Part shown: positions 5,992 to 29,081 of the stretch, piece after piece | Layout: each line of letters begins with the position of its first letter | How positions within the stretch are numbered: position 1 is the first letter of the stretch | From: a virus | Taxonomy: Duplodnaviria; Caudoviricetes | DNA: 33,976 nt | Direction: 5' to 3' (one strand) | Virus record (IMG/VR): IMGVR_UViG_3300046832_000245 | Location: 1-33,976 of that record | Translations under genes and position numbers: made by a program | Notes under the pieces: model-generated | What the model saw: only the letters and a program-made list of their open reading frames with translations | Database searches by the model: none | What the model was told of the DNA's origin: nothing

Positions 5992-6660
5992 TTAACCCAT
6001 TCTTTGTAGTGGTGCTGCGCCTTGCATTGTCCGCATACGCATAGATGACAACTGCATCGGAGTAAATTGATTGTTACTTCTTATTGGCATAGGAGCAGGA
6101 GGAGCCATAGATTGTTGCTGTTGTTGATCTTTACCAGCTAATTGACTTCCAAACTCCATAAATTTAGATGCTTTGTTTAAAACATCACCAGAAGGTAATT
6201 TGTTTGCTAATGATGATAATAGACCAGGATTTGCTGATTGATAAGCACCCATGCTTCCTAATGCTGGTGTAGATAATGAGCCAGCAGAACCACCACTTCC
6301 ACCAAGCGCAGAATTTAATGTTCCCATACCAGCAGAACCCATCATAGGTGTTGATAAGCTTCCTGCGCTTCCTATCGATGGAGCTAATGCTGAATTTAAT
6401 GCAGCAGCGCCAGGCTGTGCAATTCCGCCCATATTAGCAATTGCAGAGCCTCCAGCGCCTTCTAAACTAGCAGCTCCACCTAATGCACCACTTCCACCTA
6501 AAGCACCAATAGCAGGACCAACAGCTCCTCCTATTCCTCCCATCAATCCACCCATAAGAGCGCCCTTCCCAGCATTTTTATTAGTTGCAGCGCCTAATCC
6601 AGCTCCAAGCATTGCACTACCTAAGATAGCGCCTGTTGTACCGCCAATTATAAATGTCAT
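5992..6660 (-). CDS. Gly/Ala-rich ejection protein (P22 gp7-like role)
   Basis: Hydrophobic Gly-rich N-terminus, internal GSAGSLSTP repeat, Gln/Pro/Met-rich tail. Confidence 0.65.
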   Translation of the reverse strand: MTFIIGGTTGAILGSAMLGAGLGAATNKNAGKGALMGGLMGGIGGAVGPAIGALGGSGALGGAASLEGAGGSAIANMGGIAQPGAAALNSALAPSIGSAGSLSTPMMGSAGMGTLNSALGGSGGSAGSLSTPALGSMGAYQSANPGLLSSLANKLPSGDVLNKASKFMEFGSQLAGKDQQQQQSMAPPAPMPIRSNNQFTPMQLSSMRMRTMQGAAPLQRMG

Positions 6661-7076
6661 GATATTACCTCAAGTTTTTTAGTTTCATATTCTTCAAATG
6701 TTGCTGATACTAATTGTTCTTCAATATCAGGAACTTCTTTTTTGTCCGTTTTATGAACAGTTATAAATGTTACGTCAGTTACTGCATATCCTATTCGCTT
6801 AATGCCAGGATTATCAATCATTATTGCTGGTGCGGTTATTTCATAAGCATCATCGCCATTAGCAATCTTAATAGTTCCTTGCGCTAAGATTGCTATACTT
6901 TCAAAATTGTGTATCTTTCCAGTCAATACGGTATCAGCAGGAATAAATAGTGAGCGAACATATACGCCATCAATGTGATAATGGCTAACAGGCATTTCAA
7001 CTTGCTCACAAGATAATATAAGCTTTTCAATTTCAATTATCTCTGGCATGTTGCCGTTAAAAACTAAATTACTCAT
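6657..7076 (-). CDS. Cupin-fold (double-stranded beta-helix) protein
   Basis: GVYVRSLFIPADTVLTGKIH...ILAQGTI...APAIMIDNPGIKRIGYAVTDVTFITVH fits the two cupin motifs. Confidence 0.7.
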   Translation of the reverse strand: MSNLVFNGNMPEIIEIEKLILSCEQVEMPVSHYHIDGVYVRSLFIPADTVLTGKIHNFESIAILAQGTIKIANGDDAYEITAPAIMIDNPGIKRIGYAVTDVTFITVHKTDKKEVPDIEEQLVSATFEEYETKKLEVIS

Positions 7077-7077
7077 T

Positions 7078-8457
7078 TTATCCTTTAAACATACTTAACA
7101 AACCAGTTGCTCCAGATAAACCACCTAATATATTTCCCATTGTACTGCTACTTCCACCGCCTCCAGTATTTGTTGCTGTTGATGATCCACCAAGTCCTGA
7201 AGCGCCTCCATAAACACCTTGTTGAATATTTAACATATCTAAGTACCGTTGCATTTGTGTTTTCTCAGCATCAGTTTGAGCGCCATACAAAGCATCTTGA
7301 GCTGAAGTAACATCTGCATAGGTTGCTTTTCCAGTGTTGTAAGCTTGTAGTGCATTGTTAAGATTGTTTTGCGCTTGCTCCATGCTCATTGATCTATTTT
7401 TTAGCCCTAAATCAGCGTTATATTGAGCATTTTGCAGTGAGTTAGTAGCATTAAACTGTCCCATGTTATTTAACGCTTGCATATTAGCTAAATTAACAGC
7501 TTGTTGATTATCAGCATTAAACTGTCTCATATTATTTAATGCTCCAGCATTAAATTTACTAATATCATTTAATGATGAAGCATTAAATTGCTCATTTTGT
7601 GCAGCCTGAGCATTAAGATCGCCTGCTGCTGCCGCCATTCTTTGTTGAGCATTTTCAAAAGCACCGCCATAAAGTTGTGCGCCAGTATCCATTGCTCTTT
7701 GTCCTAAATCCCTAGCGTTAATTCCTAACTGCTGACCTAGTATTCCTTCAGCAATTCCTTGTCTTGATCCGCCATATTGGCCAGATGCAAAAGCATCTTG
7801 TTTAATCTGTGGCAATAAAGTCTGATTAGCATTTTGTAGAGCGTCATTATATCCTTGCATAGCTTGATTAATGCTTGCTTGATTCATCTGTGCTAAATAA
7901 GGATTAGTTGTTGGATCACCTTTTAATATTTGTGATAAAGAACTTGTAGGATCAAGAACGCCTTGTGCTGATCTTGCATTTATTAAGTCACTTAATGTAG
8001 CTTCTGCTTGTGCTGCTTCTGCTTGTGCTGCTTCTGCTTTTGCTGCATCTATATTTGAATAATCAGTATTTCCAACATCACTAAAATTAGTATTATATCT
8101 TCCGCTGGTTAAATCATTTTGTAAGTTTGAACCCAAACCTTGCATATTTTCAATCCCAACATCACGTCCACCTAATGTAGTTTGATAATCGCTTAATAGT
8201 TGTTGTTCTTGTGGACTAAGATTTTTATATTGATTTGCAAAATTAGATGTTTGTTGTAACAATCCTAATGGTCCATTTGCATTTTTATTTAATTTATATA
8301 GCCCAGTTTTTGGATCATAAGTTCCTTTATTCCAGAAACTTTTAGTTGGACCCCACGGAGCAGTATTTGTAGTTGTTGTAGATGGAGAAGAACCTCCACC
8401 TCCTCCGCTAAAATTAAAAGTAATTGGATTTAAAAGTCTATTTAATATTTGTTTCAT
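7078..8457 (-). CDS. DNA pilot / ejection protein (459 aa)
   Basis: SGGGGGSS-TTTT-APW N-terminal motif, NPY and YGGSRQGIAEG motifs, Gln/Asn/Ala-rich 11-residue repeats, hydrophobic Gly-rich C-terminus. Confidence 0.7.
   Translation of the reverse strand: MKQILNRLLNPITFNFSGGGGGSSPSTTTTNTAPWGPTKSFWNKGTYDPKTGLYKLNKNANGPLGLLQQTSNFANQYKNLSPQEQQLLSDYQTTLGGRDVGIENMQGLGSNLQNDLTSGRYNTNFSDVGNTDYSNIDAAKAEAAQAEAAQAEATLSDLINARSAQGVLDPTSSLSQILKGDPTTNPYLAQMNQASINQAMQGYNDALQNANQTLLPQIKQDAFASGQYGGSRQGIAEGILGQQLGINARDLGQRAMDTGAQLYGGAFENAQQRMAAAAGDLNAQAAQNEQFNASSLNDISKFNAGALNNMRQFNADNQQAVNLANMQALNNMGQFNATNSLQNAQYNADLGLKNRSMSMEQAQNNLNNALQAYNTGKATYADVTSAQDALYGAQTDAEKTQMQRYLDMLNIQQGVYGGASGLGGSSTATNTGGGGSSSTMGNILGGLSGATGLLSMFKG
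8000..8046. repeat. 15-bp tandem repeat, about 3 copies (GCTTCTGCTTGTGCT), encoding AKAEAAQAEAAQAEA
   Basis: Read directly from the sequence; third copy has one mismatch. Confidence 0.85.
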
Positions 8458-8900
8458 GATAGATGTTCCTTTTTATAATCGTCAAATCTTTCAAAAAAAA
8501 CCTCTTTCCACATAAGTGGAACAAGCTCTTTTGACTTTTCAATGCCAACACATTGAATAATTGCATAAGCAATAATATGTCCAGCTGCATAACGTAAAGA
8601 ATGGCTTATTTCAATTCCATGCTCATCTTTTTCTTTTTCAAACTTATTTGCAGTTACATAAGCAGACATAACAACTTCAAGCATTGGTGAGATAGCTGGA
8701 AATATATGGTTGTACAGTGGATTCGTTGGCAACCCAATTAAGCATATTCTAAATGCTTCATTAATTTGATCTTCACTAACTTCAACATCTTTATCAACTA
8801 AATCGTCCCATGTATGCAGTAATGTTCTAAACATTTCAAAGATATCTTCTCCATGTTTATTACCTCCAAATAAATCTATTATTTTCATATTAGTTAGCAC
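8454..8900 (-). CDS. Helical protein with DDxxD motif; putative isoprenoid-synthase/prenyltransferase fold
   Basis: HTWDDLVDKD at the end of a hydrophobic helix; apparently all-alpha; later ANKFEKE and LRY. The ORF is solid, the function is inferred. Confidence 0.55.
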   Translation of the reverse strand: MLTNMKIIDLFGGNKHGEDIFEMFRTLLHTWDDLVDKDVEVSEDQINEAFRICLIGLPTNPLYNHIFPAISPMLEVVMSAYVTANKFEKEKDEHGIEISHSLRYAAGHIIAYAIIQCVGIEKSKELVPLMWKEVFFERFDDYKKEHLS

Positions 8901-26736: not shown

Positions 26737-27600
26737 ATGGAACAACAAAGAACAGAAGAATGGTTTGAAAAACGCAAAGGTCGTATAACTGGTAGTAATG
26801 TTGGTGCAATCTTAGGGTTATCTCCCTTTATGAAACGTGAAGATGTTATGCGTAACATGGTTCGTGATTATCATAATTATCCTAGTGAATTTACTGGTAA
26901 TCCAGCGACTAACTATGGTACTTATCACGAGCCTATTGCGCTGGCTGACTATGAGTTAAAATTTAATAGAAAAGTGGAGCTTACTGGTTTTCACACATAT
27001 GAAGATTGGCTTGGAGCATCACCAGATGGTTTGATTAATGATGATGGTTTGATTGAGATTAAATGCCCCTATGGTCAACGTGATAAAAACCCACCAGAAT
27101 TTAAGTCTATAGATTATCAAACTCATTACTGGCTACAGATACAAATCCAATTATTTGTTACTGGCAGGAAATGGTGTCATTTTTATCAATGGTCTGCACA
27201 CGGTTACATGCTTGAAACAGTGCAATTTAATCCATTAGCTATTGAAGAATATTTACCAAAATTAAAAGACTTCTACAATGAATATCTTGTTGAGCGTGAA
27301 CTTCCACAAGCACAAAAGTATCTTGATGAAAAACGCCAACAGGTAAGATGTGAAGGTCAAGTTGAGCGTTATTTAATGATTGCAGAGCAGATAAAAGAAC
27401 TTGAAGCAGAAAAGAAAAGATTATTGGATGAAATAGTTAAATTAGCTGATGGTAAAGATAGTGAAATTAATGGTCACAAATTAACACAAGTACACCGTGA
27501 AGGCGCTATATCCTACGCTAAAGCCATAAAAGAGCTAATGCCTGATGCAGACCTAACTAAATACCAGTCTGCTCCTAGTAGTTATTGGAGATTGACATGA
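26737..27600 (+). CDS. YqaJ/lambda-exonuclease-family recombination nuclease
   Basis: QRTEEWFEKRKGRITGS, GASPDG, EIKCP, Y..QIQ.Q motifs. Confidence 0.93.
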   Translation: MEQQRTEEWFEKRKGRITGSNVGAILGLSPFMKREDVMRNMVRDYHNYPSEFTGNPATNYGTYHEPIALADYELKFNRKVELTGFHTYEDWLGASPDGLINDDGLIEIKCPYGQRDKNPPEFKSIDYQTHYWLQIQIQLFVTGRKWCHFYQWSAHGYMLETVQFNPLAIEEYLPKLKDFYNEYLVERELPQAQKYLDEKRQQVRCEGQVERYLMIAEQIKELEAEKKRLLDEIVKLADGKDSEINGHKLTQVHREGAISYAKAIKELMPDADLTKYQSAPSSYWRLT

Positions 27601-29081
27601 GTGAATTAATTGAAATATTAATAAAAAGTATAAATGAACTTGATTTAGAAAAAAAAATAATTGCAATAAATGAAGTTAGAGAAAAAATACATTTAATAAG
27701 TCCTTTTAAAAATGAACCTGTTGATTTTGTTAAATGGGTTAAAAATGAAAACGTATATCAAAATGATTACAATCCAAATAGTGTTGCTCCACCAGAAATG
27801 GAGTTACTTAGATTATCTATTTCAGAAGATGGATATACACAACCTATAGTTTCTATGCCCGATGAAAGTGAAAAATATGAAGTTATTGACGGTTTTCATA
27901 GGCATAGAGTTGGAAAAGAATGTAAAGACATACAAGAAAAAATACTTGGATATCTTCCTATTGTACAAATAAGAGAAGATCAAAAAGATAAAACAGACAG
28001 AATGGCATCAACTATTAGGCATAACAGAGCAAGAGGAAAACATAAAGTTGAATCTATGTCTGACATTGTTATTGAGCTTAGTAGAAGAAACTGGTCTGAT
28101 GAAAAAATAGCTAAAAATCTTGGAATGGATTCTGATGAAGTTTTAAGATTAAAACAAATAAGCGGATTAGCTGAAATGTTTTTAGATGAAGATTTTTCTG
28201 AAGCATGGGATGAAGAAAAAAAAGATATATGGGTAAGGCAAAAGCCAAAACTTGCTGCTAAATGTGAAGATTATCCATTTTATCAGCCAAATATGGAATT
28301 CGAAGAATTAACTGTTTTGTTTGGATTATGGTATGCACAAGGAAAAACATGCGCTGGATTAATTGGGATAAGAGCAGATGAAAGTTTAAATAGATATAGA
28401 ACTGTTGCTGTATTTGATAAAAAAATGCATGGAAATAATAGATATACAACTTATATAGGCGACAATTTGTTTAATGTTTATCCAATTTATGATTGGAAAA
28501 CAGAAGATATATGGAGATTTCATTCTAAGTTTAAAAACTTACCAAGCAATAAAATATATAACCATATGCACAAAGCTGGTGTTCCAATAAGCCAGCAAAG
28601 ACTTTGTCAACCTTATGGAGATGATCAAAAAAAAGGATTATGGTTGTATCACATCCTTGAGCCTGAAACTTGGTTTAAATTAATAGCTAGAGTAAATGGA
28701 GCTAATTCAGGCGCACTTTATGTTCAAGAATCAGGCAATATAACTGGAAGAAATAAAATATCTAAACCTGAAAATCATACTTGGAAAAGTTTTTGTAATT
28801 TATTATTAAAGTCTTTGCCTAAAAAAAATAGAGATCATTATATAAAGCGATTTAGAGTTTTTATTAAAGGATGGAAACTAAGAGGATATAACGAAATACC
28901 TGATTTTGCTCCAAAGACTCTTGAAGATAAACAATGGGCGCCATCATATAGAAGATTATGCAAAGTTTTGTTAAGAAATGATTATTGGTGCAAAGATCTT
29001 GGATTAACTCAACCAAAAAGTGATGCTTATGGAAAATACTTGCAGTTAAAAAAACAAAAAATAGTTGGCATTGAAGCATGA
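27597..29081 (+). CDS. Fusion of complete IbrB/YbdM-like ParB domain to the C-terminal part of an IbrA/YbdN-like (PAPS reductase family, DUF3440) protein
   Basis: NDYNPNSVAPPEM, DGYTQPIV, VIDGFHR, STIRHNRARGKH (IbrB); then GIRADESLNR, YPIYDW, QRLCQPYG, EPETW, LLRNDYWC (IbrA). ATGA coupling suggests the start is 27597. Confidence 0.85.
   Translation: MSELIEILIKSINELDLEKKIIAINEVREKIHLISPFKNEPVDFVKWVKNENVYQNDYNPNSVAPPEMELLRLSISEDGYTQPIVSMPDESEKYEVIDGFHRHRVGKECKDIQEKILGYLPIVQIREDQKDKTDRMASTIRHNRARGKHKVESMSDIVIELSRRNWSDEKIAKNLGMDSDEVLRLKQISGLAEMFLDEDFSEAWDEEKKDIWVRQKPKLAAKCEDYPFYQPNMEFEELTVLFGLWYAQGKTCAGLIGIRADESLNRYRTVAVFDKKMHGNNRYTTYIGDNLFNVYPIYDWKTEDIWRFHSKFKNLPSNKIYNHMHKAGVPISQQRLCQPYGDDQKKGLWLYHILEPETWFKLIARVNGANSGALYVQESGNITGRNKISKPENHTWKSFCNLLLKSLPKKNRDHYIKRFRVFIKGWKLRGYNEIPDFAPKTLEDKQWAPSYRRLCKVLLRNDYWCKDLGLTQPKSDAYGKYLQLKKQKIVGIEA

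Follow-up and report, generated by a model that had tools for sequence, protein, structure and literature searches.

A small viral protein with a near-invariant DDxxDxD motif, encoded next to the gene of a likely DNA-ejection (pilot) protein, is predicted to be a minimal class I prenyltransferase, and on balance we favour the view that it prenylates the matured N-terminus of its neighbour, in this genome at Phe16. The evidence comes from the conservation of the motif, from predicted structures, from the residue at the end of the pilot leader, which follows the enzyme from locus to locus, and from the exchange of the gene with GNAT-like genes in the same genomic slot.

Gene organization

The window, that is the whole stretch of 33,976 nucleotides under analysis, is an entire viral record that is 81% complete; it encodes an SU10-type portal, capsid and adaptor, and its tail protein is ~31-33% identical to the counterparts of PaP3-like phages. 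The DDxxD gene is located after the tail genes and ahead of four Ala/Gly/Gln-rich or helical ORFs and a cupin-like gene. The features relevant to this work are the following:

8454..8888 (-): 144-aa DDxxDxD protein of PHROG 21390 (function unknown), its predicted fold resembling a minimal class I prenyltransferase
8787..8816 (-): HTWDDLVDKD motif (D28, D29, D32, D34), predicted Mg2+/diphosphate site from its sequence, its conservation and a D/D+4/D+6 spacing as in StheQ D85/D89/D91
8454..8457 (-): ATGA stop/start overlap seen in the sequence, coupling the DDxxD and pilot genes; most related loci have gaps between -32 and +8
7078..8457 (-): 459-aa pilot (IVP-B-like), probably the first protein ejected and the predicted substrate; PHROG 7477, with homologues in PaP3 (orf16) and Mel-JY34
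8413..8457 (-): residues 1-15 of the pilot, a leader predicted to be removable on the basis of leader families, sister pilots that lack one and the precedent of P22 gp7
8410..8412 (-): Phe16, which by prediction becomes the N-terminus of the mature pilot and the acceptor; assigned by eye from the leader-end pattern, as this leader falls outside the regular expressions
8392..8409 (-): Ser-Gly5 linker in the sequence behind the predicted acceptor Phe16

A sequence-only reading of this DNA had pointed out the ORF, its HTWDDLVDKD motif, the ATGA overlap and a pilot (ORF 7078-8457) with Trp at positions 35 and 42 only and no Cys, all of which are present as described. It had also given the DDxxD protein 148 aa, a length that does result when ORF 8454-8900 (-) is read from a GTG; this GTG falls within the upstream gene, whose stop is at 8890-8892, whereas the ATG at 8888 yields 144 aa, equal in length to the nearest homologues, and is the likelier start as judged from the sequence.

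Distribution and conservation of the DDxxD family

The family is large and almost purely viral: 204 close homologues were found, clustering at 50% gives 484 representatives, at least 520 IMG/VR stretches carry a member, and viral sequences make up 82-100% of the three nearest Atlas clusters. The one cultured carrier found is Achromobacter phage CF418P1 (1 in 50,697 GenBank phage records, three queries), and among 401 genomes of one order only the seed genome itself was positive. In the literature covered, consisting mostly of papers outside subscription, no account of the family or of pilot lipidation was found.

Conservation was calculated on 127 distant relatives of 135-180 aa, taken from 150 listed. 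D28 and D32 are 100% conserved, D29 96%, D34 and W27 94%, N56 98%, E84 86% and R99 98%, and the full DDxxDxD is kept in 115 of the 127, so the motif picked out from the single sequence is indeed a property of the homologues. W27, D28, D29, D32, D34 and R99 reach 100% in all three clades, with E84 at 85-100% and E133 at 96-100%, at a mean identity across the family of ~27%. When the window protein was shuffled 20,000 times, DDxxD appeared in 3.2% of the shuffles and DDxxDxD in 0.2%; being this rare by chance and near-invariant at D28, D29, D32 and D34 among relatives, the motif is more than a coincidence.

SAM methyltransferase genes are found just upstream of, or fused to, the DDxxD domain, along with one Stf0 sulfotransferase fusion and one tandem duplicate of the domain (L007, L067, L087, L101, L109; P0173, P0255, P0240, P0136); both the methyltransferases and the sulfotransferase are modifying enzymes. 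An S-adenosylmethionine decarboxylase gene is located upstream of one further member (L161:5471-5977).

The partner protein

The 459-aa ORF matches PHROG 7477 at E 8e-5, and PaP3 orf16, a member of this PHROG that aligns locally with it, matches the DNA-ejection PHROG 4287 at E 3e-10; the label "pilot protein" is thereby an indirect one. We collected 193 distinct DDxxD loci, 3 of which end without downstream DNA. A coupled ORF with a pilot-like start, as judged by eye, follows the gene in 189 of the other 190 (the identity of the partner family was checked for the window, one pilot family and L173), a conserved linkage to ejection genes that the earlier reading had anticipated. The lone exception is L106, in which the gene behind the DDxxD member encodes a short protein unlike a pilot.

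Two ejection proteins from model phages are useful for comparison. According to the available portion of PMC8402733, P22 gp7 loses 20 residues to OpdA, the new N-terminus having been sequenced as KGGKG, and this leader is largely dispensable, with about 60% burst in its absence. T7 gp14 forms an outer-membrane pore, as stated in the part of PMC8954989 that was available. Modification of a pilot was not reported in the literature found.

The residue ending the leader follows the enzyme

We labelled 175 loci according to how the pilot begins, dropping L106 and 17 loci that had no near ATG call, and reduced them to 118 at 85% identity. On an enzyme tree obtained by a quick search the pilot starts fall into groups (leader plus hydrophobic residue, Cys, or Pro), with 10 tag changes against 56.7 when shuffled. 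Since kinship alone could yield such grouping, the comparison was made within three leader families common to all enzyme types, comprising 72 distinct leaders; 84 pilots, including that of the window, lie outside these patterns. The position preceding the Gly-rich linker holds F/M/I/L/V in 43 of 44 pilots paired with a window clade enzyme, Cys in 10/10 of those paired with the Cys clade, and small or polar (G/S/A/D/K) in 18/18 paired with GNATs; the first anchor used on Arg-Arg leaders had given 34/43, 8/10 and 18/18 and was corrected afterwards. The positions flanking the tag are hydrophobic in only 9/44 and 2/44. Although the Cys label is taken from the pilot itself, it is independent of this label that the Cys-clade enzymes group with the enzymes of leaderless Met-Cys-Asp partners (support 98), apart from the window clade, a grouping that also fixes the register of the leader end.

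The pilot tree requires at least 18 changes of enzyme type, and different enzyme-plus-tag cassettes occur with pilots that share 94%, 88% and 86% identity over 200 residues. Additional window-clade loci mostly repeat the hydrophobic pattern, and the tag is also hydrophobic in those loci read in which a DDxxD and a GNAT-like gene are both present. No leader is found in 58 of the 118 partner proteins (MC, MGC, MP and MG starts), while in the window clade it is nearly universal, as would be expected because Met removal by methionine aminopeptidase cannot expose a bulky first residue. In L173:2995-6723, from a long-tailed phage, a DDxxD member is located between tail genes I and J of lambda type, and the J protein starts with MCC and a Gly run. 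Because tag and enzyme are encoded side by side, they can move as one unit, and we regard their co-variation as strong and not as conclusive. The partners of an intermediate enzyme group (L447, L464, L473) have a very short leader plus Phe (NPF or SIF) at their start, and Lys/Pro-rich linkers after it.

The earlier reading had instead proposed Trp35 or Trp42 as the prenylated residue, by analogy with ComQ. ComQ and StheQ are class I enzymes that prenylate a Trp of the neighbouring gene product (as far as the available text on StheQ goes), and a Trp does occupy the tag position in three related pilots (L158, L163, L253). Yet only 59 of the 118 pilots have a Trp within their first 60 residues (32/53 in the window clade), Trp alternates with Tyr in the one conserved pilot motif, and neither an NDxxx pseudo-second motif nor a C-terminal Trp is found. 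As Trp is not conserved in the pilots, a ComQ-like Trp target is unsupported; the residue tracking the enzyme is the one ending the leader, and we consider indole prenylation of either Trp very unlikely.

Exchange with GNAT-like genes in the upstream slot

A motif derived from the pilots of DDxxD loci retrieved 556 relatives. In the best 80 of these 556, which were not de-duplicated, the slot upstream of the pilot holds a GNAT-like gene in 71 cases, a DDxxD gene in 7 and neither (unrelated genes) in 2. The 71 GNAT-like genes form seven clusters: representatives of three (30 loci) match GNAT families directly, and for the remaining four (41 loci) the GNAT-like label comes from profile links, with one member above a Pfam GNAT cut-off. 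DDxxD and GNAT-like families are dissimilar, with hhalign probabilities of at most 8.5 between the DDxxD family and the seven clusters. No DDxxD gene was found within 4 kb in the 73 loci with a non-DDxxD slot, nor did the seven GNAT-like profiles detect a GNAT-like ORF among the 297 ORFs of the window. With profiles of these seven clusters only, 9 of the 193 DDxxD loci also have a GNAT-like gene upstream, adjacent in 8 of them. The suggestion that the DDxxD gene replaces a GNAT at this locus thus stands as an exchange within the same slot, while strict exclusivity had to be dropped. One of the pilots with neither enzyme has a HINT-domain gene upstream (L380:1208-2071).

This slot is that of IVP-A. 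In the accessible part of PMC4819975, T7 IVP-A is described as non-structural, needed for morphogenesis and absent from virions, and IVP-A as matching acetyltransferases by HHpred, replaceable by another protein and with syntenic homologues in P22 and epsilon15. The resemblance to the IVP-A/IVP-B pairs T7 gp13-gp14, P22 gp14-gp7 and PaP3 orf15-orf16 lies in a small gene directly before the first ejection gene; moreover, P22 gp7 has a cleaved leader ahead of a Gly-rich start and T7 gp14 begins Met-Cys. The difference is that the slot here holds an all-helical DDxxDxD protein and not a GNAT. In PaP3, a cultured Pseudomonas phage, the GNAT-like gene (PHROG 7642) overlaps a leader-bearing homologue of the window pilot (orf15-orf16, L381:12955-14314). 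The published alternative IVP-A, phiRIO-1 gp39, was considered as a member of the DDxxD family and rejected (hhalign probability 0.1).

The description of T7 IVP-A as a non-structural morphogenesis factor (PMC4819975, same part) would also suit an assembly factor without catalytic activity, one that attaches to the N-terminus of the pilot and brings it into the procapsid. P22 gp14 is annotated as head morphogenesis, the N-terminus of P22 gp7 is readable, and a binder would likewise co-vary with the tag. Against this, an invariant acidic cluster plus Arg at the low mean identity of the family is the pattern of an active site, unrelated enzyme folds (GNAT, DDxxD) fill the slot, and the DDxxD domain is fused to other modifying enzymes; we find such a factor distinctly unlikely.

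Predicted fold and relation to isoprenoid synthases

As claimed in the earlier reading, the model of the window protein is all-helical (pLDDT 97.1), and so is that of a second member at about 30% identity (pLDDT 96.6). Using VIA-align, 23 of the top 50 rows for the window model align at least 128 residues and all 23 are isoprenoid-synthase or prenyltransferase entries (best match: Z 7.8, rmsd 3.8, 134 residues aligned); the remaining 27 align at most 109 residues, two of them at Z 7.2. The second model gave class I enzymes in 49 of 50 rows (best Z 9.7, rmsd 3.6, 141 aligned) and a single unrelated row at Z 6.8. These Z values are middling for helical proteins, the unrelated partial matches at Z 7.2 being level with the best of the window model. 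D28-D32 are placed at the end of helix 11-32, and the aligned ranges, which carry no residue-level register, are compatible with the DDxxD lying on the first Asp motif of solved enzymes. They cover a trimmed synthase core that begins ahead of the first Asp motif and reaches roughly to where the second lies, and not one half of a synthase, as the size of the protein had suggested.

The Foldseek comparison advised at the outset returned no PDB match for either model; against viral structures it retrieved four members of the family and, beyond these, no more than a weak row for a trans-prenyltransferase (E 2.7, TM 0.46). Sequence and profile searches of Pfam, NCBIfam and PDB gave no match for the DDxxD protein, and 140 family members had none in Pfam. 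Atlas leads for the family were polyprenyl_synt, HEPPP_synt_1, HexPS-like and DUF2600, all under 0.8, and the best hhalign result against 34 proteobacterial IspA/IspB was P 0.05, on the motif helix and not significant. A second DDxxD motif was not found, one conserved acidic residue (E133) being near that place, nor was the Arg-Arg loop after the first Asp motif found in the family. The full-length matches of the two models make a class I isoprenoid-synthase-like fold likely, as was first proposed, while homology of the family to isoprenoid synthases is unproven.

According to the available part of its report (bioRxiv 10.64898/2026.08.29.745113), the ComQ homologue StheQ binds the donor via D85/D89/D91, D153 and K174 and has a single metal site; in our reading D28/D32/D34, E84 and R99 may parallel this set in the same order. 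The DDxxD protein shares with ComQ/StheQ, as far as that text describes them, the predicted class I fold, a DDxxD motif like their first one, a predicted single Mg2+ site and a putative substrate encoded next door. It is about half their length and its conserved columns lack the pseudo-second motif NDxxx or GDxxx; its predicted substrate is a 459-aa virion protein and not a short peptide, and its predicted acceptor is N-terminal (Phe/Leu/Met/Ile/Val, Cys or Pro), whereas theirs is a Trp near the C-terminus. It is ComQ-like in predicted fold and gene logic, IVP-A-like in position and a member of neither family.

The best full-length matches were trans-isoprenyl diphosphate synthases, the heptaprenyl synthase small subunit (5h9d_D, 9kp1_A) and MoeN5 (Z 7.7-9.7, rmsd 3.6-3.8), although the DDxxD protein is 4-15% identical to them and lacks the second DDxxD, the Arg-Arg loop and detectable profile homology. 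As the top structural rows are 188- and 236-residue chains of heptaprenyl diphosphate synthases, and the Atlas leads include HexPS-like and HEPPP_synt_1, the protein could mimic the small subunit of a heterodimeric prenyl synthase, docking on the host enzyme and redirecting its isoprenoid supply, with adjacency to the pilot reflecting linkage only. Such small subunits are non-catalytic, which as the best structural match speaks against a prenyltransferase; to our knowledge they also have no Asp motif and are encoded alongside a large-subunit gene, whereas the DDxxD family keeps its Asp motif invariant; no PF00348 match was found in its own record (81% complete). Moreover, mimicry leaves unexplained both a tag that follows the enzyme across swaps and the J-protein case, and we rate it as highly improbable.

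The middling fold match and the missing second Asp motif would also fit a metal-dependent enzyme that uses the same scaffold for other chemistry at the N-terminus, either transfer of another diphosphate-activated group or processing of the leader; a conserved Asp cluster and co-variation with the tag suit any N-terminal enzyme. Every full-length structural match is nevertheless a prenyl-diphosphate enzyme, and for leader processing 58 of the 118 partners have no leader to cut, so other chemistry seems unlikely to us.

Prenyl transfer to peptide side chains or termini is also known from eukaryotic Cys prenylation and from cyanobactin ABBA prenyltransferases, which differ in their folds and in their C-terminal CaaX or cyclic-peptide substrates. 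Cyanobactin enzymes are capable of N-terminal prenylation as well. A 2017 review, in the part accessible, gives Cys isoprenylation as undetected in prokaryotes (PMC5331326).

Proposed mechanism and implications

In the prenylation scheme that we favour, a minimal phage-made class I prenyltransferase, predicted to have one Mg2+/diphosphate site, would take a host prenyl diphosphate as donor and transfer its isoprenyl group to the pilot. A peptidase would remove pilot residues 1-15, as OpdA does on P22 gp7, exposing Phe16, whose alpha-amine would be alkylated, while sister clades would act on an N-terminal Cys or Pro. The lipid may help the first-ejected protein to enter the outer membrane or to load into the head, a membrane-anchor role suggested by analogy with the T7 gp14 outer-membrane pore. 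The readable N-terminus of P22 gp7 beside a GNAT-like gene indicates that a blocked alpha-amine is not general, or at least not full, and in MGC-type pilots the Cys would be second after Met removal, so a single acceptor chemistry may not fit all clades.

A broader proposal, which could well hold although we stop just short of favouring it, is that tailed phages put a lipid on the N-terminus of whichever protein is pushed first into the host envelope, by means of swappable enzyme-plus-tag cassettes. The DDxxD family would then be the minimal class I prenyltransferase of such a cassette, prenylating a virion protein at its N-terminus (at Cys or Pro in other clades), and the GNATs of T7 gp13/P22 gp14 type would be the acyl version of this step.

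A second enzyme-plus-tag pair was seen in the window at 6657-7076 (-) and 5992-6660 (-), where the gene that we take, from a familiar motif, to encode a cupin (PHROG 12032/24280, labelled tail fibre) overlaps the start of the next gene, whose product begins MTFII. The gene after the cupin-like gene starts M[S/T/A][F/W] in 20/20 distinct loci with a readable next gene (24 loci in all) and in 6/7 of another set; under the broader proposal this would be a third such cassette. Elsewhere in the window, in the replication arm, 27585-29081 (+) encodes a fusion of ParB_N, PAPS-reductase-like and DUF3440 parts, possibly a DNA-modification enzyme.

If the DDxxD protein does prenylate the pilot, phages would possess a virion-protein prenylation system, built on a peptide prenyltransferase of very small size whose N-terminal acceptors differ by clade and which may be usable as a lipidation tool. 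Achromobacter phage CF418P1 is a cultured carrier at hand, and the PaP3 orf15-orf16 pair is a ready case for the acylation question. If unrelated transferase folds, two in number, do replace each other and the pilot changes its first residue along with them, the slot is probably for the chemical tagging of an outer-membrane pore protein, the role given to T7 gp14 in the available part of PMC8954989, which would provide a testable answer to the role of the IVP-A gene (T7 gp13, P22 gp14).
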